Below are positions 3,985 to 21,773 of a DNA stretch of 23,305 bases, piece by piece. Position 1 is the stretch's first letter. Each line of letters starts with the position of its first letter. This DNA comes from a virus. A program made the translations under genes and the position numbers. The stretch lies in UHGV virus genome UHGV-0105868. One strand, written 5' to 3'. The notes beneath the pieces are model-generated. The model saw nothing but the letters and a program-made list of their open reading frames with translations, was not told the DNA's origin and did no database searches.

Positions 3985-3991
3985 GGTGCTT

Positions 3992-6129: not shown

Positions 6130-8540
6130 GCCATGCTGATATGAACAACTGCAGCGGCTTTAACGAGGCCGCCGCAGCATTCTCATGGAACAGCCCGAAA
6201 AAGGCTATTAACCCTTATCTGGACCCGGCGGAAGTTGCGCCGGTTTCTGCGCTTTCAAACCTGATCACTCTGTACGCTGTCGATAACGAGCAGGAACAAC
6301 TGCGTCGCGAGGCACTGAGTGATCAGGTCTGGGAGCGTTATTTCTTTAATGAATCCCGTGATCCTGTTCACCGCGAAATGGAGCAGGATAAGCTCATTAG
6401 CCGGGCAAAGCTGGCGCATGAGCAGCAGCGTTTTAATCCAGATATGGTCATTCTGGCGGACGTCAATGCCCAGCCTTCCCATATCAGCAAGCCGCTGATG
6501 CAACGTATTGAATACTTCAGCAGCCTGGGCAGGCCAAAGGCTTATTCCCGCTATTTGCGTGAGACGATTAAGCCATGTCTGGAACGACTGGAGCATGTAC
6601 GCGACTGTCAGCTATCCACTTCTTTTCGCTTTATGGCAAGCCATGAAGGGCTGGACGGCCTGCTGATCCTGCCTGAAATGAGTCAGGATCAGGTGAAGCG
6701 CCTGTCTACCCTTGTCGCCGCGCATATGAGCATGTGCCTTGATGCAGCTTGTGGTGATTTGTATGCCACCGATGACGTTAAGCCAGAAGAAATCCGCAAG
6801 ACATGGGAAAAGGTGGCAGCGGAAACCCTGCGTCTGGATGTTATCCCGCCTGCGTTTGAGCAACTCCGTCGGAAAAGAAACCGCCGTAAACCCGTGCCTT
6901 ATGAACTCATTCCGGGTTCGCTGGCGCGTATGTTATGCGCCGACTGGTGGTATCGGAAATTATGGAAGATGCGTTGCGAATGGCGGGAAGAGCAGTTGCG
7001 TGCTGTTTGCCTGGTCAGCAAAAAAGCATCTCCCTATGTCAGCTATGAAGCCGTGATGCATAAACGTGAGCAGCGCCGTAAGTCGCTGGAGTTTTTCCGT
7101 TCTCATGAACTGGTGAACGAAGACGGCGACACGCTGGATATGGAAGACGTGGTAAACGCCAGCAGCAGCAACCCTGCGCATCGCCGCAATGAGATGATGG
7201 CCTGTGTTAAAGGTCTGGAGCTTATCGCGGAAATGCGCGGTGACTGCGCCGTTTTCTACACCATCACCTGTCCGTCACGTTTCCATTCCACGCTAAATAA
7301 CGGCAGGCCCAACCCGACCTGGACAAATGCGACGGTAAGACAAAGCAGTGATTATCTGGTCGGTATGTTTGCTGCATTTCGTAAGGCGATGCACAAAGCC
7401 GGATTGCGCTGGTATGGCGTGCGGGTGGCTGAGCCGCATCATGACGGTACAGTTCACTGGCACCTGTTGTGTTTTATGCGCAAAAAAGATCGCCGCGCCA
7501 TTACTGCTTTGTTGCGTAAGTTTGCCATTCGTGAAGACCGCGAGGAGCTGGGTAATAACACGGGACCACGCTTTAAGTCTGAGCTGATAAACCCGCGCAA
7601 AGGTACGCCAACAAGCTACATCGCGAAATACATCAGTAAGAACATTGACGGGCGTGGTCTGGCTGGCGAGATCAGCAAGGAAACGGGTAAATCCCTGCGT
7701 GATAACGCTGAATACGTTAATGCCTGGGCGTCTCTGCATCGTGTTCAGCAATTCCGCTTCTTTGGCATTCCGGGGCGTCAGGCTTACCGTGAACTGCGAT
7801 TGCTGGCTGGTCAGGCGGCAAGGCAACAGGGGGACAAAAAAGCAGGTGCGCCGGTACTGGATAACCCGCGTCTTGATGCCATCCTGGCCGCTGCTGATGC
7901 TGGTTGTTTTGCCACCTACATCATGAAGCAGGGCGGCGTACTGGTTCCCCGCAAATATCACCTCATCAGAACCGCTTATGAAATCAACGAAGAGCCGACC
8001 GCCTATGGCGATCACGGCATTCGTATTTATGGCATCTGGTCACCCATTGCAGAGGGCAAGATCTGCACTCATGCGGTGAAGTGGAAAATGGTTCGTAAGG
8101 CCGTTGACATTCAGGAGGCGGCAGCCGACCAGGGCGCTTGCGCCCCTTGGACTCGTGGCAATAACTGTCCCCTTGCTGAAAATTTGTACCAACAAGGGAA
8201 AGACAAATCAGCTGATGGGGATACCAGAACGGATATCACCCGTATGGATGACAAGGAGTTGCACGATTACCTGCACAGTATGAACAAAAAAGAACGCCGG
8301 GAACTGGCTGCAAGGTTACGCCTGGTGAAACCGAAACGGCGTAGAGACTACAAACAGCGAATTACAGACCATCAACGACAGCAGCTCGTCTATGAACTGA
8401 AGTCCAGAGGATTTGATGGCAGCGAGAAAGAGGTCGATTTACTCCTTCGCGGCGGCAGTATTCCGTCAGGAGCAGGCCTGCGTATCTTCTATCGGAACCA
8501 GCGTTTGCAGGAAGATGATAAGTGGCGGGATCTGTATTAA
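6126..8540 (+). CDS. A: Replication initiation protein A (rolling-circle nicking endonuclease, P2 gpA-like)
   Basis: 804 aa containing …[13 protein letters not shown]… (HxH metal motif) and …YIAKYISKN… (catalytic Tyr region). Start overlaps the dam stop (ATGA). Confidence 0.9.
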
Positions 8541-8632
8541 TTACGCGGGTTAACAATTCGTGCTCTTAATAATACCAGGCATATCAGGCTGATGAACGTA
8601 AAAAAACGTTTTACATCAGTAAGATTATTATA

Positions 8633-8652
8633 TACTGTAAATATAAACAGTG
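8633..8652 (+). promoter_or_regulatory. LexA (SOS) box TACTGTAAATATAAACAGTG overlapping a putative promoter
   Basis: CTGT-N8-ACAG with an AT-rich spacer, close to the consensus TACTGTATATATATACAGTA. Lies about 45 bp upstream of the 8694 start. Placement matches the LexA-controlled tum promoter of phage 186. Confidence 0.6.
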
Positions 8653-8693
8653 GTTATGTGTACAGTATTGCTTGTGGTGTCATAGGAGGAAAA

Positions 8694-8882
8694 ATGCAGG
8701 ACTATTTTTTGGAGTCTTTGAAGCTCCAGCGCATTGATTTTTTTCTTAAGCTTGTAGCGGCTAGTGAGTGTAGTGATGAAGAGAAGGGGCTGGCTCTGCA
8801 GTGGGTTTCTGAATTGACTGATGAACTCATGGCAAAAATCAGAAGCCACGAATACAACCGCTCAATGGATGTCATCAGCTGA
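8694..8882 (+). CDS. Small SOS-regulated protein (62 aa) at the tum antirepressor position
   Basis: ATG preceded by AGGAGG. Directly downstream of the LexA box. The protein itself is not recognised; the antirepressor role is inferred from position only. Confidence 0.45.
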   Translation: MQDYFLESLKLQRIDFFLKLVAASECSDEEKGLALQWVSELTDELMAKIRSHEYNRSMDVIS

Positions 8883-8892
8883 GGTGACTTTT

Positions 8893-9126
8893 ATGCGCAT
8901 TGAAATAATGATCGATAAAGAGCAGAAAATTAGCCAGTCTACCCTGGACGCCCTTGAATCCGAGCTTTACCGCAATCTGCGCCCCCTGTATCCCAAAACG
9001 GTAATTCGTATCCGCAAAGGTAGCTCTAACGGTGTGGAACTGACCGGACTGCAACTGGACGAAGAAAGAAAACAAGTGATGAAAATTATGCAGAAGGTGT
9101 GGGAAGACGACAGCTGGCTGCATTAA
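8893..9126 (+). CDS. DinI-like protein
   Basis: 77 aa, MRIEIMIDKEQKISQSTLDALESELYRNL…KVWEDDSWLH, resembling E. coli DinI (MRIEVTIAK…ALAGELSRR…ETWESADDWFVSE) in length and pattern. RBS GAGGTG. Confidence 0.75.
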   Translation: MRIEIMIDKEQKISQSTLDALESELYRNLRPLYPKTVIRIRKGSSNGVELTGLQLDEERKQVMKIMQKVWEDDSWLH

Positions 9127-9631
9127 GAAACGTTGCTGGCGTCTGAACTTGCTTCTGGCGTCAGCAAGGTTGAACAACGAGCTGTGCGAGGCGTTAGCCA
9201 TCTGATCAAAAGACATCAAATATCATATTGTATATCGTGGTTAAACGCTGGAAACAATCATTCCCGGTCAGAGGGGCTTCTTTCAATGTCCAAAAGAGTG
9301 AGATAGAGGATACAGGATGGGAAGAGCTTATGATGATTGTTCTTGGATTGACTTGGAATATTTGATGTCCATTATCTAATGGACTTGGTCTTGATAGTTA
9401 TCACGAAAGAGGAAGCCAACGTCATGTATTTGAAGAGTATCTCTTACCTTTTGATTAATTATTGTCCAAGTTTTTCAAAAGCTTCTTATCTGGCGGTCGA
9501 TACATGATTTACTGTTGGATATGGTATTTAAAATTAATCTTTACACTGTGGTATATGCAGAATAGGATATTATCAATACAATCAAACCGTTTTCATACGG
9601 TTGTTAATATTGCAATGTTATAGGTAATGTC

Positions 9632-10750
9632 ATGTATCTTTTCAAGTATTACCGTCCGGACTTCTTCTTCGAGAAAGCTATTCGTTATAATGAATTATAT
9701 TTTTCCGCTCCTGCGCAATTGAATGATCCTAATGATCTCAATATAGATTATCGTTTTGATAATAAATTGAAATTATGGGATATTTTATTGCGTTCTCCTT
9801 GCGATAAATCCTATGAAAATTTGAGTCACATATTAGATTTGAGTAATTTGAAGATACATAAGGGATTGAATCGTATTTTTAGAGGAAAAAAAATAAAAAG
9901 TAGCATTGAGTCATTAGATAGCCTGTTTGACTCACACGTTGATGAGATACGTAAGATCATAAATGATGGTTTACTACCTATCAATGTGATTAATTCCGCT
10001 ATTTATGGGAATATTCCTGAACCACGCCAATTTTTGGTCTCACTTTGCGAGAACAGTATCAAAGAAAGGTTGTATAGGAAAATAGTTCCTGCAGTATTCA
10101 GTGTGTCATTTTCAGCTAATGCGTTAGATCGTATGATGTGGGCGCATTATGCTGCAGGCTTTAGTGGTTGTGTTGTGATTTATGAAACGCAGGATTTTAA
10201 TATTAATGGCGTGCCACATCCTGGAATGAAGCTAAGAGAAAATTTATTTTCATCAGATAAATTTAATTTTCCAGTTAAGCAAATAAAATATAGTAATCAG
10301 GCTAAAGAGGTTTCACTTCTAGACCCAAGCGCAAATGTTGCAGAGTTATTTTTAACTAAAAATAGATTTTGGAGATATGAAGCTGAATATCGAATGTTTA
10401 TTCCAGAGGCAAATGCAGGAATAGGGAGTGAGCGGCATGTTCAAAGACGCGTAAATCGAAATATTGGACATATTTTTCATCATGATGCTAATGTTGTTAA
10501 AGGGATCATTTTTGGTCCTAGAATGTGTGAAATGAAAAAAGAAAGCATATGGAATTGTATCAAGTCAAATATGGAGAATTCAAATTCAACAATATGTTAT
10601 TTTTTTGACTCTGAGTTATCAGCATCAGGAAAGATTACTATTTCAAAAGGGCAACGAGCGGAAAAAATGAAAAATTTCCCTTTGTTCAGGAACAAGTTAA
10701 GTCAGACGGAAATGGCTAAAGTTTTGAAGGAAATTGGCATTACGAACTAA
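9632..10750 (+). CDS. AT-rich cargo protein (372 aa) with DUF2971-like N-terminal motif; candidate defence / abortive-infection gene
   Basis: Long ORF in a visibly AT-rich region, unlike the GC-richer phage backbone. N-terminus LFKYYRPDFFFEKAIRYNELYFSAPAQLNDPNDL and a later …SFSANALDRMMWAHYAAGFSGCVVIY… resemble the DUF2971 family signature as I remember it. Function unknown. Confidence 0.8.
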   Translation: MYLFKYYRPDFFFEKAIRYNELYFSAPAQLNDPNDLNIDYRFDNKLKLWDILLRSPCDKSYENLSHILDLSNLKIHKGLNRIFRGKKIKSSIESLDSLFDSHVDEIRKIINDGLLPINVINSAIYGNIPEPRQFLVSLCENSIKERLYRKIVPAVFSVSFSANALDRMMWAHYAAGFSGCVVIYETQDFNINGVPHPGMKLRENLFSSDKFNFPVKQIKYSNQAKEVSLLDPSANVAELFLTKNRFWRYEAEYRMFIPEANAGIGSERHVQRRVNRNIGHIFHHDANVVKGIIFGPRMCEMKKESIWNCIKSNMENSNSTICYFFDSELSASGKITISKGQRAEKMKNFPLFRNKLSQTEMAKVLKEIGITN

Positions 10751-10816
10751 CCTAACAACAGTGCATGCCTATGCTGCCTGAATTTGCATGACCGTTTGAG
10801 GATCGTTTTTGCTAAG

Positions 10817-10840
10817 GCCCGCCAGAACTGGCGGGCTTTT
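10817..10840 (+). terminator. Rho-independent terminator (gcccgcc-agaact-ggcgggc-TTTT)
   Basis: 7-bp GC stem, 6-nt loop and a T-run, 66 bp downstream of the 9632..10750 stop. Confidence 0.6.
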
Positions 10841-10885
10841 GCGTGGATCAGGCACCTGCATGAAAACCACTACACAAAGCGGGCA

Positions 10886-10904
10886 GGCGTGGCGGGGATA
10901 CGAG
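10886..10904. other. Candidate cos site (19-nt cohesive-end region GGCGTGGCGGGGATACGAG)
   Basis: The first 13 nt match the P2/186 cohesive-end sequences as I remember them (P2 GGCGAGGCGGGGAAAGCAC; 186 GGCGTGGCGGGGAAAGCAT). Sits in a short GC-rich block between the two AT-rich cargo genes, between gene A and the 3' end of Q, where cos lies in P2-like prophages. Confidence 0.4.
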
Positions 10905-11005
10905 CGCGCGCAACAGTGTAACAATCTGGATCTAATGTGATATAGTTACTGTAAATATTATTAATTATTCTTATATGCATTATTAAATATTTTAATGGAG
11001 CGTTT

Positions 11006-12679
11006 ATGGAAAAATATCAAGATGAGGAATATGTAGACGATTTAACTGAGCGTGTTTTTCTCATTAAGCAACAACTGGAAGCGGGAAAACTAAAAATAGC
11101 TCATCATCTTGTAGAAGGTTTTATTGAAAGTTTTAAAAGAATAAGGCTGCGACAGGATGGTAAAGTTGACCCTTCTACTGTTGATGGCAGAATAAGGGCT
11201 ATGGGAGCAGCGGTTAATCACTTTTTAGAAAGAGAAGATATAAAAAACAAATACTCTATTCAGGACTTGCAAAGTTCTTACTTTAATATTCTTTTTAGTA
11301 ATTTTGGCGAGTTGTTTTATCTGATGAAAAAAACTAATGCAACGCCACATAAAGCATCAAGTTTTTTTTCTCAACAAGAAGAATATGTTAAGCAAATAGA
11401 AGGTGTTTTTCCTGAGTTATATAATCAGGTAATAGAGTTTTGGCAGGTAACATCCGATATTGGTGTAATACATTTGCAGGATGGTTCTCAGTTTAAAGCT
11501 AATTTTTCTGGTGACTTATTTCCTGCATTTGATGAGAATGCTGTCTCTATTGCAGGGTTGTATGTTGATACTATTTCACTTCCATGTCCTATATTAAGAG
11601 TCGGTCGTCTCTATGAAAAGTCAGATAAGGCTGAGTTTACAAGGATACTTCTGAAGCATGTCCTAACATGTATGACATATAAAGAAGTAGCGCTTGAAGA
11701 TATAGAGCCAGCAATAGTATTAATTTTGCCGGATAGAAGAGATTTTGAAACTGAGAGCAAAAAAAATTTGATGAGTTTTTGTGAGCCTTATGCTCTGACT
11801 CATGCGCAATATCTCTATGATCGACGGTTCGAAAGCTACGATGAATTTCAAGATTTTAGTTATTCGATGAATGATATTGATGCTGTTCTTAAAAATATTA
11901 AGAGAGCAGATAGACTTATTTTTGATACAGCATGGGGGCTAAATCCAAAAACTCAATTAGAAAAACTACTATCTGATAAAAAAAGAATATCACGTAATGT
12001 TGTTGGTGATCATGCTGGAATGGAGGTTTTCCTTTCCTGCATTGGAAGAATGCCGCAAGCCTATTCAGCAAAATGTAATGCACAAGAACTTGGTAGTACT
12101 CCATATATAAATGCAGACACATCTTGGCTCTATTATACTTGGCTTATTGAGTACGAATCTCTTAATTTTGATGTCAATGATATTGAACTAAAAAATTTGC
12201 ATATGGTTCATGCGTTATCTGCTGGTATGCAAGATGGTTTTTCATGGTTAGGAAATGTACCGGTCAATAAAATAATTGAGTTGAGACGTAACAAATTGAT
12301 GGAGGATGTAAGATCCATCTTATCAAATGGTGTTGACTCTTTAATCAATTCTTCGGCAGAGAGCTTTTCGAGGACAACGCAAAAAGTAATTGATAATGTA
12401 GACCGGGCTTTTATTGAACATCAAAGGATTCTTGCAAAAGCCCAAAAAGAGAAATTGAGAATTTACGGACTGGATGTCCTACCATGTATCGCAAATGGTG
12501 CTATAGCAATTGCTGGAGCGCTGACTGGCAATACTACTTTAGCGGCGTTAAGTGCAGGCCTTGGAGTAATAGGTATTCCGAGTATTAGTGATATCAAATC
12601 TAAATTTAAGCAGAGGCAAGAGAAGCTTGATGCCTATCAACGTTCTGTTACAGGTATACTCTTTAGCCATAAATCTTAA
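11006..12679 (+). CDS. AT-rich cargo protein (557 aa), unknown function, C-terminal hydrophobic Gly/Ala-rich segment; candidate defence / abortive-infection effector
   Basis: Long AT-rich ORF with a GGAG RBS. No motif recognised in the mostly soluble-looking body. Near the C-terminus is a hydrophobic stretch, …LPCIANGAIAIAGALTGNTTLAALSAGLGVIGIPSI…, long enough for one or two membrane helices. Confidence 0.8.
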   Translation: MEKYQDEEYVDDLTERVFLIKQQLEAGKLKIAHHLVEGFIESFKRIRLRQDGKVDPSTVDGRIRAMGAAVNHFLEREDIKNKYSIQDLQSSYFNILFSNFGELFYLMKKTNATPHKASSFFSQQEEYVKQIEGVFPELYNQVIEFWQVTSDIGVIHLQDGSQFKANFSGDLFPAFDENAVSIAGLYVDTISLPCPILRVGRLYEKSDKAEFTRILLKHVLTCMTYKEVALEDIEPAIVLILPDRRDFETESKKNLMSFCEPYALTHAQYLYDRRFESYDEFQDFSYSMNDIDAVLKNIKRADRLIFDTAWGLNPKTQLEKLLSDKKRISRNVVGDHAGMEVFLSCIGRMPQAYSAKCNAQELGSTPYINADTSWLYYTWLIEYESLNFDVNDIELKNLHMVHALSAGMQDGFSWLGNVPVNKIIELRRNKLMEDVRSILSNGVDSLINSSAESFSRTTQKVIDNVDRAFIEHQRILAKAQKEKLRIYGLDVLPCIANGAIAIAGALTGNTTLAALSAGLGVIGIPSISDIKSKFKQRQEKLDAYQRSVTGILFSHKS

Positions 12680-12685
12680 TGTAGA

Positions 12686-12710
12686 GGGCCGAGGTATTCG
12701 GCCCTTAGTT
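12686..12710 (+). terminator. Rho-independent terminator (gggccga-ggtat-tcggccc then T-rich) between convergent genes
   Basis: 7-bp GC-rich stem and 5-nt loop followed by ttagtttta, immediately after the 557-aa ORF stop and before the Q stop. Confidence 0.55.
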
Positions 12711-13742
12711 TTATATGAAACTGTATGGCATGAATTTTATTATGTCATCTTTGAGCCATTTATTGAGTTCTTCTATTCTGTTTTGTAGCGGTATCAATTC
12801 ATTACGCATAAAAACCTTACTAGCCTTCTCCACATCCCCAAATCCCCCAACATTATTCGGTATTATCCCCATCATTTGCGGCGGCACTCGGTGTGCTGCC
12901 ATCATGTCATCCCGGCTCACGTTCTTGATATTCAAAAATTCATCCTTTGCCGCGACTTCTGACAGAGGAATAATCTGAAGCCCGTCCTTTTTGCCGTTAG
13001 GCGAGTACATAAACAGGTTGCGGAAGTTGCCAGGGCCTTTGGCGCTTTTCATCGCATTGCGGAGGTTGTTCACGTCCTCCTGGTTCTGCGCGGCATCGGT
13101 CATGTACATGATGAAGCCAGCATGACTGCCGTTAATGTAATACTTTCGGCGGAACAGCGTGGCGGACTCGTTGAGCAGGGCTGACGGAATGGCAGAAAGA
13201 TAACCGGGCAGGCCGTAGATCTCCTGGTTGATGTCCGGTTCCATCAGATGAAAGATGCTGCCTTTCGTGAACTGATATGGCTGCGTGGTCATACCGTATT
13301 GCACAAACCAGTAGGTATCCAGGTCTAACCCGCGTCGGGTGTATTTTGCCAGGGCAGGTTCAAGGGCGATAACTTCACCGAAGCGGTTCGTGCGTTTCTC
13401 CAGGTAGGCGTTACCAAATACCAGATAGTCCTGAACAAAACGCGAAAAAGCCTGCTGGCTGAGCAGCGGGTGAGGGATGTAGGTGCTGGTCAGAATGTTG
13501 CACTTTACTGCAATCGGGGAACTATGATGCACGGCAGCGCGGAAGGTGCGCGCCAGTCCGTCAAAGCTGACGGGCGGTTCATACCAGCGGTCCATCTGTA
13601 CGCATTCCACATAATCCAGCAGTTCTCGGCGGTCCAGAACAGGAACGGGATCGCCGAAGCTGAATGCTTCGGCTGTAGTTTGACTTTTAAGCTGGATCTG
13701 TTTCGTCGCCGCAGCGCGGTTCTTCTTACTCTTTCCCATCAA
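12711..13742 (-). CDS. Q: Portal protein (P2 gpQ-like)
   Basis: 343 aa at the P2 gene Q position and orientation (3' end toward cos, divergent from the head genes). Confidence 0.85.
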   Translation of the reverse strand: MMGKSKKNRAAATKQIQLKSQTTAEAFSFGDPVPVLDRRELLDYVECVQMDRWYEPPVSFDGLARTFRAAVHHSSPIAVKCNILTSTYIPHPLLSQQAFSRFVQDYLVFGNAYLEKRTNRFGEVIALEPALAKYTRRGLDLDTYWFVQYGMTTQPYQFTKGSIFHLMEPDINQEIYGLPGYLSAIPSALLNESATLFRRKYYINGSHAGFIMYMTDAAQNQEDVNNLRNAMKSAKGPGNFRNLFMYSPNGKKDGLQIIPLSEVAAKDEFLNIKNVSRDDMMAAHRVPPQMMGIIPNNVGGFGDVEKASKVFMRNELIPLQNRIEELNKWLKDDIIKFMPYSFI

Positions 13743-15343
13743 AAAATCTCCACAATATTGCTGGTATTGGCGGATTCGCCCTGCAGCGGTTCGTTAAACA
13801 GTGCGTGCATCGTTGCCCAGGCCAGATCGGCGTGGCTGGCTTCTTCGCTGCGGCTGGCTTCATAGGTCGGGCGGTTGCCACTGGCGGTGGTGGCGCGACG
13901 GATTGCCATAAAGGACTGCGCTATGTCGGTGTGTCCGGCGTCAAACTCCAGACGGCGGTGGCTGATAATGTCGTAGGCCTTGAGTACCAGGGCGTTTTTA
14001 ACGTTGGGGTTGTAGACAAACTCCCGGACGGCAGGAAAAAACGCTTTCACGTTCTCGTAAACCCCGTGACCAACGCCGGTTGAGTCGATACCGATATAGG
14101 TCACGTTGTACTGTTCGGTCAGTTTTTTGATGGCGTCAGCCTGGGCGCGGAAGTCCATCCCGCGCCACTGGTGACGCTCAAGAATGCGGAACTTACCACC
14201 CGGCACGGCTGGCGGTGCCACCACCACGCATCCGGCGCTGTCGCCGTTTTGCGTGCCTTTTGCCGGGTCATAACCGATCCACACTTCGCGCCAGCCAAAC
14301 GGGCGCAGCGCCAGTGCATGAAAGTCGGTCCAGACTTCCCAACTGTCCACCATGCACGCCTGCAGCTCGCTGAGCGGAAACACGGACGCGAGATCGTCCA
14401 CAAACTCGCACATCAGCAGGTTCTGGTATTCATCCGGGCTGTACTCCATGCGTAGCTGGTCGAGGTCGAACAGGTTACAGCCGCCGCGTACCGCATCTTC
14501 CACGGTGACTATCTGGCGGTATTGCCCGTCTGCGCACAGCAGGCCGGGGGCCAGATTGCTGTGGGACAGGTCGATGTCCACCTTATCGGCTTTGTTGCGC
14601 CCACGGTTGAACAGCGCACCGGACCAGAACGGATAAGCACTGTGTGTCAGACTGGATGGCGTGGAAAAATAGGTTTGTCGCCATTTTTTGTGAATAGCCA
14701 TACCGGAAGCCACTTTGCGCAGCTCCTGAAATTTCGGTATCCAGAAATATTCATCCAGATACAGGTTGCCGTGATAACTCTGGGCCGTGCGGGCATTGGT
14801 GCCGAGGAAATACAGTGTGGCCCCGTTGGGAAGCACCATCGGATCGCCTTTCAGCTCCACCTCTACTTCTTTGGCGAAGTCGATGATGTACTGTTTAAAG
14901 ACGTGGGCCTGTGCCTTACTGGCGGAAAGGAAAATCTGGTTACGTCCGGTAAGCAGGGCGTCAATCAGGGCTTCACGGGCAAAGTAAAAGGTCGCGCCGA
15001 TCTGGCGTGACTTCAGCAGGTTGCGGATGCGGTTGGTTTTTCCGGCTTCCCACCAGTGGCGCTGGTAGTTGAACATGGAGGAATGGAAAATTTCTTCCAG
15101 CTTCTCAATCTGTTCATCGGTGAAAACGTTCTTTTCCGGCTGACGGCGTGGGCCTTTGTTGCGGTTGGCGACGTTAGGGTTTAAGTCGGCTTCGTTGCCG
15201 CCATTGTTAAACTTGCCGATCCGCGCATGGCGCTCCGACTGGCGCGCCAGCAGGTCAATCTCTTTGAAATCTTTCCCTTCTTTGTGCTCCTTCATAATGA
15301 GCTGGCAGTAGCGTGCGGCGGTGGTGAGCTGCATCTGATCCAC
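13739..15343 (-). CDS. P: Terminase large subunit (P2 gpP-like ATPase/nuclease)
   Basis: 534 aa with a Walker-A-like …LLKSRQIGATFYFA… region. Start overlaps the Q stop. Start is GTG or a nearby ATG. Confidence 0.85.
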   Translation of the reverse strand: MDQMQLTTAARYCQLIMKEHKEGKDFKEIDLLARQSERHARIGKFNNGGNEADLNPNVANRNKGPRRQPEKNVFTDEQIEKLEEIFHSSMFNYQRHWWEAGKTNRIRNLLKSRQIGATFYFAREALIDALLTGRNQIFLSASKAQAHVFKQYIIDFAKEVEVELKGDPMVLPNGATLYFLGTNARTAQSYHGNLYLDEYFWIPKFQELRKVASGMAIHKKWRQTYFSTPSSLTHSAYPFWSGALFNRGRNKADKVDIDLSHSNLAPGLLCADGQYRQIVTVEDAVRGGCNLFDLDQLRMEYSPDEYQNLLMCEFVDDLASVFPLSELQACMVDSWEVWTDFHALALRPFGWREVWIGYDPAKGTQNGDSAGCVVVAPPAVPGGKFRILERHQWRGMDFRAQADAIKKLTEQYNVTYIGIDSTGVGHGVYENVKAFFPAVREFVYNPNVKNALVLKAYDIISHRRLEFDAGHTDIAQSFMAIRRATTASGNRPTYEASRSEEASHADLAWATMHALFNEPLQGESANTSNIVEIF

Positions 15344-15354
15344 TGGACCGCATC

Positions 15355-15987
15355 ATGATCGGCTTTAACGGCGTGAAGCGTGCGAAAACCTCCAACCGTA
15401 GCGAAAAACCGCTGCTGCAGGATGTGAACAAAGGCTGGCTGCAGAAAATCCGTGAAGATGCACCGGATCACGTCATGGGCAGCACCACCACGGGCGGTGA
15501 AACCACACCGGGAGCGGTGAAAGTCGGGAAAGGTGGCGAATATGCCAACCTGGACGCCGTGGTGATGGATGCCGTCAATGAGCTTATCGATGTGGTCTAC
15601 CAGGACGATGACGATCTGGTGGTGATTTGCGGTCGTGAACTGCTGTCTGACAAGTATTTCCCGCTGGTCAACAAAGAGCAGGAAAACAGTGAAAAACTGG
15701 CTGCCGATATGATCATCAGTCAGAAACGCATGGGTGGCCTGCAGGCCGTGCGTGCGCCGTTCTTCCCGCCGAATGCACTGCTGATCACCCGTCTGGATAA
15801 CCTGTCCATCTACTGGCAGGAAGACACCCGCCGCCGCTCAGTTATCGACAACCCGAAACGTGACCGGATTGAAAACTTTGAATCCGTTAACGAAGCCTAT
15901 GTGGTTGAGGACTACCGCTGCGCCGCACTGGTGGAAAACATCCAGATTGGCGACTTCAGCGCCGCAGCAGCAGAAACCGGAGCGTAA
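15355..15987 (+). pseudogene. N: Major capsid protein fragment (C-terminal ~210 aa of P2 gpN-like); scaffold gene O and capsid 5' region absent
   Basis: MIGFNGVKRAKTSNRSEKPLLQDVNKGWLQK…LITRLDNLSIYWQED… matches the C-terminal two-thirds of P2 gpN as I remember it (…IMAGFNGVKRAETSDRS…). It begins only 11 bp from the divergent P start, leaving no room for gene O or the N-terminal ~145 codons of N. Confidence 0.7.
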
Positions 15988-15990
15988 TTC

Positions 15991-16641
15991 ATGAGCCTGA
16001 GTCCCGCACGGCAGCATCGCCTGCGCGTTCAGGCTGAACAGGCCGCCCGCGAGGGCGGCAGCGTTCGCCACGCGTCGGGCTATGACCTGATGCTGCTGCA
16101 ACTGGCGGAAGACCGCCGCCGTCTCAAGGGCGTTCAGTCCACGGTCAAAAAAGCGGAAATCAAGGTGGAGCTGCTGCCGAAGTACGCCGCCTGGGCGGAG
16201 GGTGTCCTGGCTGCCGGAGGCGCTCAACAGGATGACGTGCTGATGTACGTGATGCTGTGGCGCATTGATGCCGGAGATTATGCCGGGGCGCTGGAGATCG
16301 GGCGTCACGCCCTGCGTCATGGCTGGGTGATGCCGTTAGGTAACCGCAACGTGCAGACCGTGCTGGCAGAGGAAATGGCAGATGCAGCCCAGAGCTCAAT
16401 GCTTGCCGCCACCGGCTTTGATGCCGATCTGTTGCTGCAGACCCTGGAGCTGACAGACGGTATGGATATGCCGGACCAGTCACGGGCGCGTCTGCATAAA
16501 GCGATTGGCGCTGTCCTGAGTGAAAGAAATCCGGCGTCTGCCCTTAATCATCTCAACCATGCGTTACAGCTCGATCCCCGCTGTGGCGTGAAAAAAGACA
16601 AACAGCAGCTGGAGCGCAGACTGCGCAATGACAGCCGCTGA
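15991..16641 (+). CDS. M: Terminase small (endonuclease) subunit, P2 gpM-like
   Basis: 216 aa; MSLSPARQHRLRVQAEQAAREGG…VLMYVMLWRIDAGDYAGALEIGRHAL… resembles P2 gpM. Confidence 0.8.
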   Translation: MSLSPARQHRLRVQAEQAAREGGSVRHASGYDLMLLQLAEDRRRLKGVQSTVKKAEIKVELLPKYAAWAEGVLAAGGAQQDDVLMYVMLWRIDAGDYAGALEIGRHALRHGWVMPLGNRNVQTVLAEEMADAAQSSMLAATGFDADLLLQTLELTDGMDMPDQSRARLHKAIGAVLSERNPASALNHLNHALQLDPRCGVKKDKQQLERRLRNDSR

Positions 16642-16736
16642 CAGAACGTGCCCCCGCGCACGGGCGGCACGGGGCGGCGAAAGGCACTGCCACATCAAAA
16701 CCCCGTCCACCGCCCTCTATTTCAGGAGAAAGCAGC

Positions 16737-17201
16737 ATGAAGTTTGTTGCGCCAGAACAGGCACCGGAACAGGCGGAAATCATCAGGAATACGCCGTTCT
16801 GGCCTGATGTGGACCTGTCGGAGTTTCGCAGTGTGATGCGCACTGACGGCACGGTGACGCAGCCGCGTTTAAAACAGGTTGCCCTGTCGGCAATTTCGGA
16901 GGTCAACGCAGAGCTGTATGAGTTTCGCAGACGCCAGCAGATGCTGGGGTATGCCTCGCTGGCAGAAGTCCCGGCGGAACAACTGGACGGCAAAAGCGAG
17001 CGCATTCAGCACTATTTCAACGCGGTTTATTGCTGGGCACGCGCCATGCTCAACGAACGTTACCAGGACTATGACGCCACGGCATCCGGTGCGAAGCGAG
17101 GCGAGGAACTGGCGGAAGCAAGCGGTGATTTATGGCGTGACGCCCGCTGGGCCATCAGCCGGGTGCAGGATGCGCCGCACTGCACAGTGGAGCTTATCTG
17201 A
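16737..17201 (+). CDS. L: Head completion/stabilisation protein (P2 gpL-like)
   Basis: 154 aa in the gene L position. AGGAG RBS. Confidence 0.8.
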   Translation: MKFVAPEQAPEQAEIIRNTPFWPDVDLSEFRSVMRTDGTVTQPRLKQVALSAISEVNAELYEFRRRQQMLGYASLAEVPAEQLDGKSERIQHYFNAVYCWARAMLNERYQDYDATASGAKRGEELAEASGDLWRDARWAISRVQDAPHCTVELI

Positions 17202-17404
17202 TGAAAGTGCGTGCGCATCAGTATGACACGGTGGACGCACTTTGCTGGCGTCATTACGGGCGCACGCAGGGTGTCACGGAGCAGGTACTGAAGGCAAATC
17301 CGGGGCTTGCCGAATACGGCCCCTTTTTACCTCACGGGCTGCAGGTGGAGCTGCCGGACATTCCGACAACCACCACCGTGCAGACCGTCCAGCTATGGGA
17401 CTGA
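17201..17404 (+). CDS. X: Tail protein X (P2 gpX-like)
   Basis: 67 aa, the same length as P2 gpX, in the gene X position. Confidence 0.8.
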   Translation: MKVRAHQYDTVDALCWRHYGRTQGVTEQVLKANPGLAEYGPFLPHGLQVELPDIPTTTTVQTVQLWD

Positions 17405-17407
17405 ATT

Positions 17408-17623
17408 ATGACGCTTGAGCGAATCAGCGCCTTTATCACGTATTGCATCGCCGTCGTGCTGGCCTGGCTGGGCGATTTGTCCATCAAGGATGCCTCAACG
17501 CTGGGCGGCCTGATGATCGGTGTGCTGATGCTGGCTATCAACTGGTACTACAAACACAAAGCCTACCAGCTTCTGCGCGACGGGCAGATCTCGCGGGAGG
17601 ACTATGAATCCATCAATCGTTAA
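17408..17623 (+). CDS. Holin
   Basis: 71 aa with two hydrophobic helices (…ISAFITYCIAVVLAWLG… and …LGGLMIGVLMLAINWYY…) and a charged C-terminus. Immediately upstream of the lysozyme gene. Confidence 0.7.
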   Translation: MTLERISAFITYCIAVVLAWLGDLSIKDASTLGGLMIGVLMLAINWYYKHKAYQLLRDGQISREDYESINR

Positions 17624-18116
17624 ACGCTGCCTTGTCGGGGCCGTGCTGGCTATTGCTGCCACGCTGCCGGGGTTTCAGCAGCTTCACACCTCCGAGGAGG
17701 GACTGAAACTGATCGCCGATTATGAAGGCTGTCGTCTGCAGCCGTATCAGTGCAGCGCGGGTGTCTGGACCGACGGCATTGGTAATACGTCGGGCGTCAT
17801 TCCCGGCAAAATTATTACGGAACGACAGGCAGCTGAAGGGCTGATCTCCAACGTGCTACGAGTGGAGCGGGCGCTGGAAAGGTGTGTGAAGCAACAGCCG
17901 CCGCAGAAGGTGTATGACGCTACGGTGTCGTTTGCCTTCAACGTGGGGACGGGCAATGCCTGTAGTTCCACGCTGGTGAAATTGCTCAATCAGCGGCGCT
18001 GGGCGGATGCATGCCGACAGTTGCCGCGCTGGGTTTATGTGAAAGGTGTTTTTAATCAGGGGCTGGATAACCGCCGTGCGCGGGAGATGGCCTGGTGTTT
18101 ACAGGGAGCAAACTGA
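17604..18116 (+). CDS. Endolysin (lysozyme), probably a signal-anchor-release (SAR) type
   Basis: 170 aa. N-terminus has a weakly hydrophobic Gly/Ala-rich segment (CLVGAVLAIAATLPG). Then …DYEGCRLQPYQCSAGVWTDGIGNT…, a Glu-x8-Cys/Asp-x5-Thr lysozyme catalytic pattern. Confidence 0.8.
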   Translation: MNPSIVKRCLVGAVLAIAATLPGFQQLHTSEEGLKLIADYEGCRLQPYQCSAGVWTDGIGNTSGVIPGKIITERQAAEGLISNVLRVERALERCVKQQPPQKVYDATVSFAFNVGTGNACSSTLVKLLNQRRWADACRQLPRWVYVKGVFNQGLDNRRAREMAWCLQGAN

Positions 18117-18117
18117 A

Positions 18118-18495
18118 ATGAAAAAGAAATTAATCAGCGGACTGTTTCTGATGTTATGGATGGCGCTGTTAATCGCAGCAATGGTGTATCCGCAGGGGAT
18201 TTTTCCGGTACTGGCAGCGTCCGGCGTTTGGGTAGCCTGTTTGCTGACATGGGCGGTAATTCCGGTAGCACTGGCTGCGTTAATTAAGAATGGCCCGCTC
18301 TGGCAGGAGTTAAGGGCATCTTTGCTGAAGACAATTACCCGAAAAGAAAACGTATTTACCAGTTGGGTGATGCGATTGCTGATTGTTGTAAGTCTCGCCT
18401 GGACGGGGTGGGCTATTACCCTGGTCTTTTATCTACTGACCGTTATTGCCTTCTGGATCACCCGTAATCAGATGGCGCAACAGGTAGCAGCATGA
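18118..18495 (+). CDS. LysA-like lysis-timing membrane protein
   Basis: 125 aa from MKKKLISGLFLMLWMALLIAAMVY…, with about four hydrophobic helices. In the P2 lysA position. Confidence 0.65.
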   Translation: MKKKLISGLFLMLWMALLIAAMVYPQGIFPVLAASGVWVACLLTWAVIPVALAALIKNGPLWQELRASLLKTITRKENVFTSWVMRLLIVVSLAWTGWAITLVFYLLTVIAFWITRNQMAQQVAA

Positions 18496-18926
18496 ACCGG
18501 TTGCTGCTGGTTGTGCTGACGTTATTACTGGCGGCGCTGGGCTGGCAGACGTGGCGGCTGGCTGATGCCAGCCAGACCATCAGCATGCAGGCAGACGAGC
18601 TGCAGAGCAAAAGCCAGGCACTGGCAAAGAGCAATAGCCAGCTTATCAGCCTGTCCATTCTGACTGAAACCAATAACCGGGAGCAGGCGCGGCTCTATGC
18701 CGAAGCAGAACAGACCAGCACGCTGCTGAGACAACGACAACACCGGATCGAGGAACTGAAACGTGAGAACGAGGATTCGCAGCGCAGAAATCATCCCGTA
18801 TCGCGTGGAAGCCACCATTTTTCTCTATCCTGGACCGGAAGCAGAGCCGGTAATGGCAGCGGCAAAAGCCAGCCTGCAGAAGTACATCGCCAGTCAGACG
18901 CGTCTTGGTCGGGATATTCGCCGTAG
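18492..18926 (+). CDS. LysB-like i-spanin, apparently 3'-truncated and running out-of-frame into a gene J remnant
   Basis: N-terminal membrane anchor MNRLLLVVLTLLLAALGW followed by a coiled-coil-like Q/E/R-rich region. The last ~40 codons overlap the J-fragment frame and look non-native. No Rz1/LysC-like ORF seen. Confidence 0.5.
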   Translation: MNRLLLVVLTLLLAALGWQTWRLADASQTISMQADELQSKSQALAKSNSQLISLSILTETNNREQARLYAEAEQTSTLLRQRQHRIEELKRENEDSQRRNHPVSRGSHHFSLSWTGSRAGNGSGKSQPAEVHRQSDASWSGYSP

Positions 18927-19065
18927 CGCCATCTTTGCCGCCCTGCATGTTGAGGGGGTGCAGCGTGTGGAGCTGGCTTCTCCTCAGGCGGATGTGGTCC
19001 TGAACAAAACACAGGCGGCATCATGTACGCAGTGGAGCGTAACCAACGGAGGAACGGATGAATAG
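18799..19065 (+). pseudogene. J: Baseplate protein J, C-terminal fragment only
   Basis: About 90 aa in-frame with and immediately upstream of gene I, overlapping its start. Far shorter than an intact baseplate J (about 300 aa). R, S, V, W and the 5' part of J are absent between the lysis genes and this point. Identification is from gene order and size. Confidence 0.45.
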
Positions 19066-19663
19066 TCTGCTGCCACCGGGTTCAACACCACTGGAGCGCC
19101 GACTGGCGCAAACCTGCAGCGGGATTTCTGATCTGCAGGTGCCGCTTCGTGACTTGTGGAATCCGGCAACCTGTCCGGTCAGTTTCCTGCCTTATCTCGC
19201 CTGGGCGTTCTCTGTGGATCGCTGGGACGAGGGCTGGACAGAAAGCGTCAAGCGCCAGGTGGTGAAGGATGCTTTTTATATTCATCAGCATAAAGGGACC
19301 ACCAGTGCCGTGCGGCGGGTGGTGGAGCCGTTCGGATTCCTGATCCGCATTATTGAGTGGTGGCAGACCGGAGAAACACCGGGCACGTTTCGCCTGGATA
19401 TCGGCGTGCAGGACCAGGGCATCACTGAAGATACCTATCTGGAACTTGAGCGACTGATAAGCGATGCCAAACCATGTAGCCGCCACATGATCGGCATGTC
19501 CATCAATCTGCAGACCAGCGGCCCGCATTGGGTGGGAGCCGCCAGCTATCTTGGCGAAGAAATCACGATCTATCCGTATATCAACGAAACGATTATTTCC
19601 GGTGGCACCGCGCATGAAGGCGGGGCGGTCCATGTTATTGACACAATGAGAGTGAATCCATGA
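19058..19663 (+). CDS. I: Baseplate/tail protein I (P2 gpI-like)
   Basis: 201 aa; …LLPPGSTPLERRLAQTCSGI…LWNPATCPVSFLPYLAWAFSVDRWDEGW… closely resembles P2 gpI as I remember it. Confidence 0.85.
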   Translation: MNSLLPPGSTPLERRLAQTCSGISDLQVPLRDLWNPATCPVSFLPYLAWAFSVDRWDEGWTESVKRQVVKDAFYIHQHKGTTSAVRRVVEPFGFLIRIIEWWQTGETPGTFRLDIGVQDQGITEDTYLELERLISDAKPCSRHMIGMSINLQTSGPHWVGAASYLGEEITIYPYINETIISGGTAHEGGAVHVIDTMRVNP

Positions 19664-21144
19664 GCACAAAATTTTATACCCTGCTGACGGATATTGGCGC
19701 GGCGAAACTTGCCAGCGCCGCCGCGCTCGGTGTGCCGCTAAAAATTACCCATATGGCGGTGGGCGATGGCGGTGGAGTATTGCCAACGCCGGACGCAAAG
19801 CAGACGGCACTGGTAAATGAGAAACGCCGGGCTGCACTGAATATGCTTTATATCGACCCGCAGAACAGCAGCCAGATTATTGCCGAACAGGTGATCCCTG
19901 AAAACGAGGGCGGTTGGTGGATACGTGAAGTGGGCTTGTTTGATGAGTCCGGGGCATTGATTGCCGTGGGCAACTGCCCGGAAAGCTATAAGCCGCAACT
20001 GGCTGAAGGTAGCGGGCGCACTCAGACCGTGCGCATGGTGCTGATTACCAGCAGCACGGACAATATCACCCTGAAAATCGACCCTGCTGTAGTGCTGGCA
20101 ACCCGCAAGTATGTGGATGACAAGGCACTGGAGCTGAAGGTGTACGCGGATGATCAGATGGCAAAACATCTTGCCGCACCGGACCCGCATTCACAGTACG
20201 CGCCAAAAGCCAGCCCGACATTTACCGGAATCCCCAAAGCGCCAACGCCAGCGGCGGGGAATAATACCACGCAGGTTGCGACCACTGCGTTTGTACAGGC
20301 GGCACTGACGGCCCTTATTAATGGTGCGCCAGCCACGCTGGACACGCTGAAAGAAATAGCCGCAGCCATTAACAATGATCCGAATTTCAGTACCACCATT
20401 AACAATGCGCTGGCACTAAAAGCACCGTTGTCGAGTCCGGCACTCACCGGAACGCCAACAGCCCCCACGGCGGCGCAGTCGGTCAACAATACACAGATTG
20501 CCACTACGGCTTTTGTGAAATCGGCGATTGCAGGAATGGTGGGTTCTGCACCTGCTGCACTGGATACACTGAACGAACTGGCGGCGGCACTGGGGAATGA
20601 TCCGAACTTTGCCACGACAATGCTTAATGCGTTGGCAGGTAAACAACCGCTGGACAATACGCTTACCAATTTGAGTGGAAAGGATGTAGCTGGTCTTCTC
20701 ACATACCTTCAATTGGGAGAAGCGGCAAAACGGGATGTCGGAACCGGTAATAATCAACTCCCGGACATGTCCGCATTTGGTATGTCGCGAAACGGACAAA
20801 CTGCCTGGGATATTCTCCCAAATGGTATGATTCGACAGGCTGGCACTGTGACACTGACACCAGTTGGTAACTTCAACTCGCAGGTGCTTGGTGGGGTGAC
20901 GTACTACACCCATTACTACAGGGTTAATTTCCCCAGACAATTCCCAAATGCACAAATAGCAACGCTGGCAACACTAGCGAGTTACAGCTATTCGACCCAG
21001 GCAACAATGGCCGGAAAATCACTGGCAACGCATCGCGATACTGATTCTGGCACTGACGTATCAAGAACGCGATTCACTGTGGCGTATACGACACCCAATC
21101 TCGGCGAAACACCGACACTGCATTTTGAAGCAATAGGATACTAA
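19660..21144 (+). CDS. H: Tail fibre protein (P2 gpH-like) with a divergent C-terminal receptor-binding region
   Basis: 494 aa. The N-terminal two-thirds carry conserved fibre motifs (MAVGDGGG, ESYKPQLAEGSGRTQT, repeated …PTFTG.P.APT…NNTQ(V/I)ATTAFV…, LNELAAALGNDPNFATTM). The C-terminal ~150 aa are different and end …EAIGY. Confidence 0.85.
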   Translation: MSTKFYTLLTDIGAAKLASAAALGVPLKITHMAVGDGGGVLPTPDAKQTALVNEKRRAALNMLYIDPQNSSQIIAEQVIPENEGGWWIREVGLFDESGALIAVGNCPESYKPQLAEGSGRTQTVRMVLITSSTDNITLKIDPAVVLATRKYVDDKALELKVYADDQMAKHLAAPDPHSQYAPKASPTFTGIPKAPTPAAGNNTTQVATTAFVQAALTALINGAPATLDTLKEIAAAINNDPNFSTTINNALALKAPLSSPALTGTPTAPTAAQSVNNTQIATTAFVKSAIAGMVGSAPAALDTLNELAAALGNDPNFATTMLNALAGKQPLDNTLTNLSGKDVAGLLTYLQLGEAAKRDVGTGNNQLPDMSAFGMSRNGQTAWDILPNGMIRQAGTVTLTPVGNFNSQVLGGVTYYTHYYRVNFPRQFPNAQIATLATLASYSYSTQATMAGKSLATHRDTDSGTDVSRTRFTVAYTTPNLGETPTLHFEAIGY

Positions 21145-21146
21145 AT

Positions 21147-21380
21147 ATGGAGAATATCTATTTCAGCCCAACGACCGTTGGTTTTTATGTTTCTGAACAA
21201 GAGCGACCTGATGATGCGGTTGAAGTCTCGCCAGAGGTGGAGGCATTTTTGAGGGAGTGTGTTATCTGGGGAGCGGATACATTTAACGTAGAGCGAGATG
21301 CAGCAACGGTGACATATCCAACAGAACTGCTTGAATATGTCACCACCTACAACGCCCCCGTTAAATATCCTGCGGATTGA
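21147..21380 (+). CDS. Small ORF (77 aa) in the tail-fibre-assembly position; possibly a truncated Tfa N-terminal domain
   Basis: Immediately follows H. Lacks the conserved Tfa C-terminal motif. Ends where the convergent minus-strand Tfa gene ends. Confidence 0.35.
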   Translation: MENIYFSPTTVGFYVSEQERPDDAVEVSPEVEAFLRECVIWGADTFNVERDAATVTYPTELLEYVTTYNAPVKYPAD

Positions 21381-21771
21381 CAGGCCATACGGGTTTTGCT
21401 GTATCAACGCGCATCAGCAGGACCCGGTATTTTTTCCATTCAGATAACGCGGCGGTTTCTTCTGCCGTCGCGATTTCCGCATCAAAAGCATCCTGTCTCC
21501 AGACTATTTCCTTATCAGCCATAGAACGCAATACCGTTCTTTTCTGTTCAGCCTGAATAATCTGTTGTTCAGCGGAGAGTGGCGGGATATCAATCCACGC
21601 AGGATTACCATTTTTATCAGCCCCCAGCGTTTTGCCTTGTGGCGCTACGCCTGTGTAAATTGCCATTGTTTCATCATCAACATCAACGCCATTTTCAGGC
21701 CATGAACCGGCGCTGATATATACCTCTTTTAGTGCTTTCGGATAGAAAGAGCCTTTATAAAATTTATTCAT
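21361..21771 (-). CDS. Tail fibre assembly chaperone (Tfa), inverted relative to H
   Basis: 137 aa from MNKFYKGSFYPK…, with the C-terminal Tfa signature …EIATAEETAALSEWKKYRVLLMRVDTAKPVWPVNPQDI, which compares with lambda Tfa and P2 gpG C-termini. Encoded on the strand opposite to H. Confidence 0.7.
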   Translation of the reverse strand: MNKFYKGSFYPKALKEVYISAGSWPENGVDVDDETMAIYTGVAPQGKTLGADKNGNPAWIDIPPLSAEQQIIQAEQKRTVLRSMADKEIVWRQDAFDAEIATAEETAALSEWKKYRVLLMRVDTAKPVWPVNPQDI

Positions 21772-21773
21772 TC

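Follow-up and report, generated by a model that had tools for sequence, protein, structure and literature searches.

The 23,305-nt stretch of DNA analyzed here (the window) represents a P2/186-like prophage (Peduoviridae, Elveevirus-like) at the rcdA–ybjL site of E. coli, in which a deletion, D1, joins the large terminase gene (P, or terL) head-to-head to the major capsid gene N. This junction is very probably a recent scar of spontaneous illegitimate joining in a defective prophage. Two further deletions, D2 and D3, interrupt the same element, and its gene content suggests that it is unable to form particles and probably unable to lyse the cell. The main features are as follows.

590–616, attL core region, direct repeat with attR (...AACAAAAAACCCAT), adjoining the host gene rcdA
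12711–13742, minus strand, portal gene Q, intact, its promoter pP lost with the deleted interval
13739–15342, minus strand, P/terL′, 5′-truncated large terminase gene, codons 1–54 plus 1 nt missing
15341–15343, D1 junction, 1567 bp missing (16843–18409 of the intact relative L005), 2-bp microhomology CA at 15341–15342
15343–15987, plus strand, N′, 3′ remainder of the major capsid gene from N nt 413, with an ORF from the internal ATG at 15355
15991–18777, plus strand, remaining O operon: M (terS), L, X, holin, lysozyme, lysA and truncated lysB, intact to 18777, pO gone
18776–18777, D2 junction, 2717 bp missing (L005 21847–24563), microhomology TT
22190–22191, D3 junction, ~6.9 kb missing (L005 ~27980–34888, ~6905 bp), microhomology TA, right end at a recurrent site in gene D (the D-site)
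23037–23255, plus strand, late-gene activator ogr, intact, with no predicted target promoter element left in the window

Identity of the Prophage and Its Relatives

The element follows the P2 gene order (int-C...A, then Q-P divergent from O-N-M-L-X-lysis-R-S-V-W-J-I-H-G-FI-FII-E-T-U-D-ogr) and encodes family-specific proteins; Pfam matches in the window include Phage_GPA, Phage_portal, Terminase_6N/6C, Phage_cap_P2, Phage_term_smal, Phage_GPL and Ogr_Delta, among others. It is colinear with Elveevirus phages at 95–97% DNA identity. The closest intact relative (L005) is a 34-kb prophage of E. coli p10A (NZ_CP049081.1, 1727.8–1761.7 kb), also present in p10B, P50 and 23CRST051, that is, in four complete E. 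coli genomes in total. Outside the deletions, only three SNPs in 23.3 kb separate it from the window. The p10A prophage and the Elveevirus phages (Klebsiella phage 4LV2017, Escherichia phage Cartapus) share with the window the rcdA–ybjL site, the gene order and the cargo; unlike them, the window lacks 1567, 2717 and ~6905 bp.

The intact relative and sister contigs have the attR repeat matching attL, followed by ybjL; the window stops ~15 nt short of attR. The distance between the att sites is 22.7 kb, compared with the 11–12-kb genome of a P4-like satellite. Such a satellite was also rejected on gene content, which is of P2 type (gpA and the full P2 early region), and none of the P4 core families (alpha primase, sid/psu/delta) occurs among the Pfam families of the called window genes. 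An R-type tailocin was rejected as well: the element has lost its sheath, tube and tape-measure genes and most of those for the baseplate, and it keeps part of the head genes.

Structure of the terL–N Junction

A first-pass annotation of the window, made from the sequence alone, had placed a deletion junction within 15320–15360. Alignment to intact P2-like genomes, the check it had proposed, reveals a 1567-bp gap in the p10A comparison and locates the joint at 15341–15343. The segment 12801–15342 is colinear with intact relatives up to terL nt 164, and from 15341/15343 the sequence resumes at N nt 413; the CA at 15341–15342 can be assigned to either parental side. The flanks match the intact prophage at 100% identity for 15.3 kb on one side and 3.4 kb on the other, so the junction is not a chance resemblance. 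The lost interval comprises terL codons 1–54, the divergent P/O late-promoter region with its activator site, the scaffold/protease gene O and N codons 1–137. The annotation had likewise reported the loss of gene O, of the N-terminal portion of N and of the divergent late promoters, and both this alignment and domain coverage support it.

Beyond that annotation, the alignment indicates that D1 also truncates terL. The intact gene encodes 588 aa, of which the first 54 codons (163 nt) are deleted, and residue 1 of the minus-strand ORF aligns with residue 56 of P2 gpP. The ORF does begin at 15343, about where the annotation had put the start of terL, but the GTG used there is created by the junction and the true start is deleted. 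The remnant has neither a promoter nor its native start; it lacks the N-terminal Terminase_5 domain (PF06056) and keeps the ATPase and nuclease domains. Packaging is thus predicted to be affected too.

On the other side of the joint, the capsid-homologous ORF starts at ATG 15355, exactly as annotated, and covers 210 aa, equal to residues 143–352 of the intact 352-aa protein (the C-terminal 60%). Its first residue aligns with residue 144 of P2 gpN; the annotation had named residue 147 or so. That this might be a naturally short capsid protein, with a scaffold encoded elsewhere and no deletion involved, is suggested by the ORF having its own ATG and being called as a gene by automatic annotation. 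However, it matches PF05125 only at model positions 136–327 of 327, whereas the intact orthologue spans 1–327, so that the full coverage of a complete P2-family major capsid protein is absent. Its DNA is identical to the 3′ part of the p10A gene, the ATG is an internal Met codon with no RBS or promoter context at 15355, and terL is truncated at the same joint. We give this reading practically no credence: a complete, shorter family member, which the annotation had named as its own refutation, is excluded by the intact 352-aa protein of p10A. Public assemblies list a 210-aa "capsid protein" and a 531-aa "terminase"; both calls are truncation artefacts.

Gene Content after Three Deletions

D2 took out the genes lysC, R, S, V and W along with the pV promoter region, and cut off the 3′ end of lysB and most of J (its first 619 nt). 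D3 eliminated the invertase, FI, FII (sheath, tube), E, E′, T and U with the pF region, as well as the 5′ end of a gp53-like fibre segment and nt 1–344 of D. As a result, the head module (Q, P, O, N, M, L) is incomplete, with O absent, N lacking codons 1–137 and P lacking codons 1–54. The tail/baseplate module is incomplete too: it has lost R, S, V, W, FI, FII, E, T and U altogether and retains only parts of J and D, and the pP/pO, pV and pF regions are missing. D1 being one of three deletions in the window, tails and baseplates are predicted to be lost as well, a point that goes beyond the first-pass annotation. Still intact are the integrase, a 186-type CI, the replication genes, ogr and the hotspot cargo, which matches PDC-S31 and DitB-like models and is regarded as candidate defence cargo. 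Essential genes are thus truncated at three nucleotide-mapped joints of sequences that are contiguous in intact relatives, as is characteristic of a defective (cryptic) prophage. The element should be annotated as such, with terL′, N′, lysB′, J′, the gp53-like fragment and D′ as pseudogene fragments.

In the intact prophage, perfect TGT-N12-ACA elements lie 96, 64 and 94 nt upstream of O, V and FI, respectively, at positions equivalent to the annotated activator sites of P2, and all of them fall inside D1, D2 or D3. Two copies of the motif are left in the window, both outside any late-promoter region. The three deletions jointly remove every predicted Ogr-dependent late promoter. The P2 O operon also carries the lysis genes (feature notes, NC_001895), so that without pO the genes M, L, X, holin and endolysin are probably silent as well. 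With no scaffold and no capsid protein, proheads would not form, in line with the first-pass statement that the prophage cannot build capsids. We infer these losses of particle formation and lysis from gene content and P2 operon structure; a second P2-like prophage in the same cell could supply what is missing in trans.

Occurrence of the Junction

The identical D1 junction is found in at least five independent public assemblies (L006–L010) from different projects and assemblers, with the same neighbour genes; altogether, 17 contigs carrying it are on record (ENA and Logan assemblies), 100% identical. Carrier samples include SRR15102853, ERR1430566 and DRR828582. By contrast, D1, D2 and D3 junctions occur in 0 of 5,426 complete E. 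coli genomes, and D1, the one junction scanned there, is not found in GTDB representative genomes. The D1-carrying lineage is thereby known from draft and metagenome assemblies only. This distribution might point to an assembly or scaffolding artefact, with the deletion absent from the organism. Yet the identical joint in independently assembled contigs argues that it is not an artefact, the endpoints hold no repeat able to cause a collapse, and further changes nested in sister contigs are what a real lineage would show. Among these derived alleles are a nonsense mutation in dam, a fourth deletion and a larger one running from the portal gene to H. An artefact is accordingly highly improbable. 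The genomes searched yielded no intermediates lacking one or two of the three deletions.

Origin of the Deletion

At D1, two parental sequences are joined directly, with no IS element, IS end or extra bases at the joint, and an IS-mediated deletion was rejected. Another strain carries a genuine IS1-associated deletion at the same locus. No repeats, att-like core or inverted repeats were found at the D1 endpoints, hairpins at the parental endpoints gave non-significant z-scores, and the new joint contains no sigma-70-like promoter. Other E. coli strains carry different deletions at the rcdA–ybjL locus with microhomologies of 0–7 bp, 2 bp being the commonest value among the measurable ones.

Very probably, spontaneous, microhomology-mediated illegitimate joining, neither IS-mediated nor site-specific, fused terL nt 164 to N nt 413. 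The event took the start of terL, pP and pO with the activator site, gene O and the first 137 codons of N. It is predicted to have left a terminase without its N-terminal domain, and the portal gene and the former O operon (holin, endolysin) without a late promoter. D2 and D3 account for the loss of the pV and pF regions and of most baseplate and tail genes. The prophage, which keeps integrase, CI immunity, replication genes, ogr and candidate cargo, is probably inherited vertically with continuing decay. As D1 is one of three deletions, it fits ordinary prophage decay.

Alternatively, D1 may have arisen in one episode with D2 and D3 by a site-specific or element-mediated process, driven by an IS, the integrase, the tail-fibre invertase or the gpA nickase. 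Several observations are suggestive of this: the right end of D3 is nucleotide-precise and reused by at least seven different deletions, the microhomology is exactly 2 bp at all three window junctions, and intermediates were not found. However, among 18 mapped deletions neither endpoint of D1 recurs; other ends lie at terL +1434 and +1702, not at +1604, and none at N +413. The endpoints share CA only and bear no resemblance to the att core, which does not agree with an Int or invertase product. The absence of IS elements, att-like cores and inverted repeats there, together with 2 bp being the commonest microhomology at the locus, makes such an origin improbable. A different proposal concerns selection rather than mechanism: an SOS-inducible prophage may have been adaptively disarmed by deletions that, in stripping its Ogr-dependent late promoters and several essential morphogenesis genes, made it non-lethal and spared immunity and defence cargo. 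The deletions cover all three of the intact prophage's intergenic late-promoter elements, the candidate defence cargo genes are intact, and so are the early genes, save for the later dam nonsense mutation. The 186-type CI and a single LexA-box-like site (CTGTAAATATAAACAG, 8635–8650) preceding a DinI/Tum-like gene suggest that the intact phage is probably SOS-inducible and costly to carry. Nevertheless, when three random non-overlapping deletions of the observed sizes were placed by Monte Carlo simulation, all promoter elements were stripped in 11% of trials within the late region and in 2% anywhere in the whole prophage. The pattern was noticed post hoc, so that at p = 0.11 to 0.02 the removal of all late promoters is not compelling evidence of selection, and the holin and endolysin genes themselves were not removed. 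We therefore consider selection for disarmament doubtful, though less improbable than a site-specific origin, and retain spontaneous illegitimate joining as the explanation of D1.

A Recurrent Endpoint in Gene D

The right end of D3 (gene D nt 344/345, window position 22190; GCTGAA^TA^CCCGCCGTG) is reused to the nucleotide by the at least seven deletions mentioned above, within a set of D breakpoints ascertained via gene calls. The right-hand sequence at this D-site is TACCCGCCGTG. Such precision is unlike random illegitimate recombination, and part of the decay may therefore involve a specific mechanism. Tentatively, the D-site may be a break or arrest site that launches leftward one-sided deletions of 0.3–20 kb into TA(nCCG)-like microhomology, D3 being one of them and D1 possibly collateral. 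The late region of P2-like prophages at rcdA–ybjL would then have been gutted repeatedly and independently, and D1 could be collateral of the same kind of episode, e.g., abortive in situ induction. If the D endpoint holds up, a specific DNA-breakage mechanism would be shaping the inactivation of P2-like prophages.

Candidate causes were compared with this site. A pseudo-origin for gpA, an HUH nickase, is not supported: the D-site resembles neither the P2 nick site (NC_001895 nt 29892, GCGCCTC^GGAGTCC) nor its homologue in the intact phage (L005 ~9648). Gene A does contain a 12-nt match, AACGCTGAATAC; relatives differ within it at synonymous sites, and ~0.09 such matches are expected by chance. 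A cos-like site was rejected, as the 19-mers most like cos occur at L005 12386 and 17031, outside D; the att core bears no resemblance to the D-site, no cix-like inverted repeats for the invertase were found there, and hairpin z-scores at the site are not significant. The D-site 24-mer has no match in GTDB representatives, and 59 of 60 loci in metagenome contigs are intact across it.

Illegitimate recombination reportedly takes place at the nick site of rolling-circle initiators (M13 gpII, pC194 Rep), as Michel and Ehrlich are said to have described in 1986. The D-site shares with that process one precise fixed endpoint and many variable partners having 2–3 nt in common; however, it is unlike the P2 ori nick, and its membership in this class is not supported.

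Comparison with Other Defective Prophages

The cryptic P2 remnant PR-X of E. coli K-12 (ogrK plus the gpD fragment yegZ) is likewise reduced by deletion and keeps ogr and a C-terminal D fragment by attR. However, PR-X retains 219 nt of D and nothing else, whereas the window retains 757 nt of D within a prophage of ~22 kb. A common D breakpoint was rejected on this account, and the decay of the window is very recent.

Defective P2-like prophages with intact defence genes have been described in general terms (NAR 2026, PMC13586616). That study is statistical, whereas here each lesion and its junction are resolved exactly, along with a series of derived alleles; the retention of immunity, replication and candidate defence cargo here fits the domestication pattern that it reports for P2-like elements. 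Three large deletions against three point differences from an intact sibling make the window a clean, datable case of very fast prophage decay.

Deleted Segments Relative to Intact Prophages

The left 600 bases of the window carry E. coli rcdA, with the element situated between this gene and ybjL. Four complete E. coli genomes (p10A, p10B, P50 and 23CRST051) match the whole window at 100.0% identity, in four pieces spanning 34.5 kb against 23.3 kb in the window. Given this four-piece match to the p10A prophage (L005) and only three true base differences from it (at 646, 5545 and 18422), the window represents an intact P2/186-like prophage minus three segments, whose junctions are designated D1, D2 and D3. 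The Elveevirus phages 4LV2017 and Cartapus are 95–97% identical to the window, which belongs to Peduoviridae. An 89-aa ORF without a family match (737–1006, minus strand), located between attL and the 3′ end of the integrase gene, is absent from phage 4LV2017 and found in 208 complete E. coli genomes.

Table. Alignment of the window with the intact prophage L005.
Window 1–15342: L005 1501–16842
Window 15341–18777: L005 18410–21846
Window 18776–22195: L005 24564–27983
Window 22190–23305: L005 34889–36004

Anatomy of the D1 Junction

Window positions 14900–15900 contain two head-to-head ORFs with starts 12 nt apart: a large terminase-like ORF (13739–15343, minus strand) and a capsid-like ORF (15355–15987, plus strand). 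In megablast searches, 14300–16700 (2401 bases) covers 3970 bases in 54 phage-database records, so that about 1.57 kb is absent from the window. Alignment with intact P2-like genomes, proposed as a check in the first-pass annotation, thus reveals a gap, and pairwise BLAST places the joint at 15341–15343. The missing stretch corresponds to L005 16843–18409 (1567 bp); its content was read in Escherichia phage Cartapus and the circular E. coli record CP019275:

First 163 nt of the 1767-nt terminase large-subunit gene
142-nt intergenic region
834-nt scaffold/protease gene, 16-nt spacer and first 412 nt of the 1059-nt major capsid gene

The left parent sequence reads ...CATCTGATCCA/GCGGCC, the right parent ...CGTCAGGCA/CTGGACC and the product ...CATCTGATCCACTGGACC, making CA common to the two sides. 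No IS element, filler DNA, flanking repeat or significant hairpin was found at the joint, nor does it create a new sigma-70-like promoter. Within the deleted P/O intergenic region, L005 17031–17049 (minus strand) matches the P2 cos 19-mer at 13 of 19 positions.

The terminase gene lost 54 codons plus 1 nt. Its shortened ORF lacks the Terminase_5 domain (residues 11–68 of the intact 588-aa protein) and retains Terminase_6N and 6C; its first residue aligns to position 56 of P2 gpP. A start near 15343 on the minus strand, as first annotated, therefore holds for the ORF but not for the gene, since the GTG at 15343 is created by the joint itself; gene callers start at the ATG at 15334 (531 aa). The capsid frame does begin at 15355, as previously noted, although at internal Met143, aligned with P2 gpN residue 144 rather than about 147; this 210-aa ORF covers only positions 136–327 of PF05125. 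The reported absence of gene O and of the N-terminal part of N is borne out, as O (PF05929) is entirely missing from the window and N nt 1–412 are deleted.

Distribution of the D1 Allele

The D1 junction occurs in 0 of 5,426 complete E. coli genomes and in no GTDB representative. Searching for exact copies of the 210-aa protein gave 17 contigs, in each of which the neighbouring terminase is truncated in the same way; they derive from metagenome assemblies at ENA (ERZ28579185, ERZ27266564) and from independent runs assembled by Logan (SRR15102853, ERR1430566, DRR828582). The five loci that were retrieved show no difference from the window across the junction. D1 is a natural, circulating allele.

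Loss of Predicted Late Promoters

The two other deletions are as follows:

18776/7 (D2): TT microhomology; 2717 bp lost, comprising 3′ lysB, lysC, R, S, V, W and J nt 1–619
22190/1 (D3): TA microhomology plus imperfect CCG; ~6.9 kb lost, comprising the 5′ part of the gp53-like invertible fibre segment, serine invertase, FI, FII, E, E′, T, U and D nt 1–344

The pV region also lies within the D2 interval, and ORF 18492–18926 is a lysB′–J′ fusion frame.

The intact prophage possesses perfect TGT-N12-ACA dyads 96, 64 and 94 nt upstream of O, V and FI, at positions equivalent to the annotated activator-binding sites of pO/pP, pV and pF in P2. All of them fall within D1, D2 and D3; the window keeps the late-gene activator gene ogr and none of the three sites. 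The divergent late promoter region is thus missing, as the first-pass annotation stated, with the pO/pP-equivalent dyad upstream of O inside D1. Because the P2 O operon is annotated as encoding O, N, M, L, X, Y, K, lysA, lysB, R and S, D1 would presumably also orphan terS and the head-completion, holin and endolysin genes.

Retained Genes and Cargo

The integrase, 186-type CI (PF07022 and PF16452), CII, Fil and gpA are intact, as is a 77-aa DinI/Tum-like gene (8893–9126). The sole LexA-box match in the window, CTGTAAATATAAACAG (8635–8650), lies just downstream of gene A and is followed by a small ORF and then the DinI-like gene. This arrangement and the presence of a 186-type CI suggest a Tum-like SOS induction circuit. 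The hotspot between gpA and gpQ (portal) contains two intact cargo genes matching candidate defence models:

9632–10750: 372-aa DUF2971 protein, match to candidate defence family PDC-S31
11006–12679: 557-aa protein without a Pfam family, weak DitB/LeoBC-like match

A 149-bp island between them (~10763–10911) is conserved with phage 4LV2017. It contains a cos-like 19-mer, GGCGTGGCGGGGATACGAG (10886–10904), matching the P2 cohesive end at 14 of 19 positions and probably representing cos; if so, the 557-aa gene falls between cos and the portal gene.

Decay Series and Origin of D1

That prophages and P2 remnants decay by deletion is well established: PR-X of K-12 retains ogrK and 219 nt of D, and a statistical description exists of defective P2-like prophages whose defence genes are conserved (PMC13586616). 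D1 is a new, precisely resolved case of this process. Contig L007 carries D1 and D2 with an intact dam, the D3 position lying beyond the contig end. The window and contig L006 have, in addition, a C>T change at 5545 that turns codon 92 of dam (5272–6129) into a stop and splits the phage Dam methylase; dam is intact in p10A, L007 and the sister contig L019, so this mutation is later than the deletions. In the sister contigs L008 and L023 a fourth deletion has been added: it takes out 1.48 kb between M nt 523 and lysozyme nt 392 (equivalent to window 16514–17994), with a 7-bp microhomology GGCGCTG and loss of L, X and holin. L019 combines D3 with a deletion of 11.5 kb that starts at portal nt 671 and reaches H nt 940. 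No alleles with only one or two of D1–D3 were found. At the same locus, E. coli WCHEC050613 has an IS1-associated deletion from a DUF5347 gene to the tail tube gene, indicating that the locus gathers independently degraded P2-like prophages.

The D1 join is direct, with 2-bp microhomology and non-recurrent endpoints. We infer that it arose by spontaneous illegitimate recombination (slippage or end-joining) and may then have been fixed by drift, or through being harmless or of benefit to the host. The three deletions may also have been selected as a set, as a "disarmament"; the joint promoter loss was noticed post hoc, and when three such deletions are placed at random, every promoter element is lost in 11% of trials within the late region and in 2% within the whole prophage.

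A Recurrent Endpoint in Gene D

Searching with the 236-aa ORF of D′, the 3′ remainder of gene D, returned many E. coli assemblies in which D′ is joined to different partners. The right end of D3 (window 22190–22191; L005 34888/34889; D nt 344/345, hereafter the D-site) is nucleotide-precise and common to at least seven different deletions at rcdA–ybjL:

gp53-like +422: window, L013 and L019
T +2148: L012 and L017
T +127: L016
Portal +496: L014
terL +1702: L015
S +366: L020
Cargo flank: L011

The only differing right breakpoint, D +302 in L018, shows that gene-call ascertainment spans at least ~90 nt. Under uniformity, the probability that seven of eight distinct junctions share one nucleotide is ~1e-11. 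D′ alleles differ by 10–27 SNPs per 1146 nt, and their hosts fall into three flank clades. Recurrence of this kind is absent from the D1 endpoints.

A TA microhomology is present at every D-site junction, and the intact left parent continues with TA in each case. Right of TA, similarity to D reaches 13 of 28 positions against 25% expected (p = 0.011, post hoc); no such similarity is seen on the left (7 of 28). L011 is L016 with another 331 bp removed, the loss ending exactly at the old joint; descent from an L016-like ancestor would imply a determinant on the retained (right) side. The T+2148/D+345 junction is common to L012 and L017, two prophages that differ in cargo (PDC-S31 type against a retron reverse transcriptase), in their additional deletions and host-flank clades, and by 15 SNPs in D′–ogr; this points either to recurrence at both ends or to recombination around an old joint.

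The D-site is intact in 59 of 60 copies among metagenome contigs. It did not fit an att-like, cos-like or ori-like site, and neither a hairpin nor a nearby IS element was found there. We hypothesize that a fixed bottom-strand 3′ end at D+345, left by a nick or replication arrest, could re-prime at TA microhomologies.
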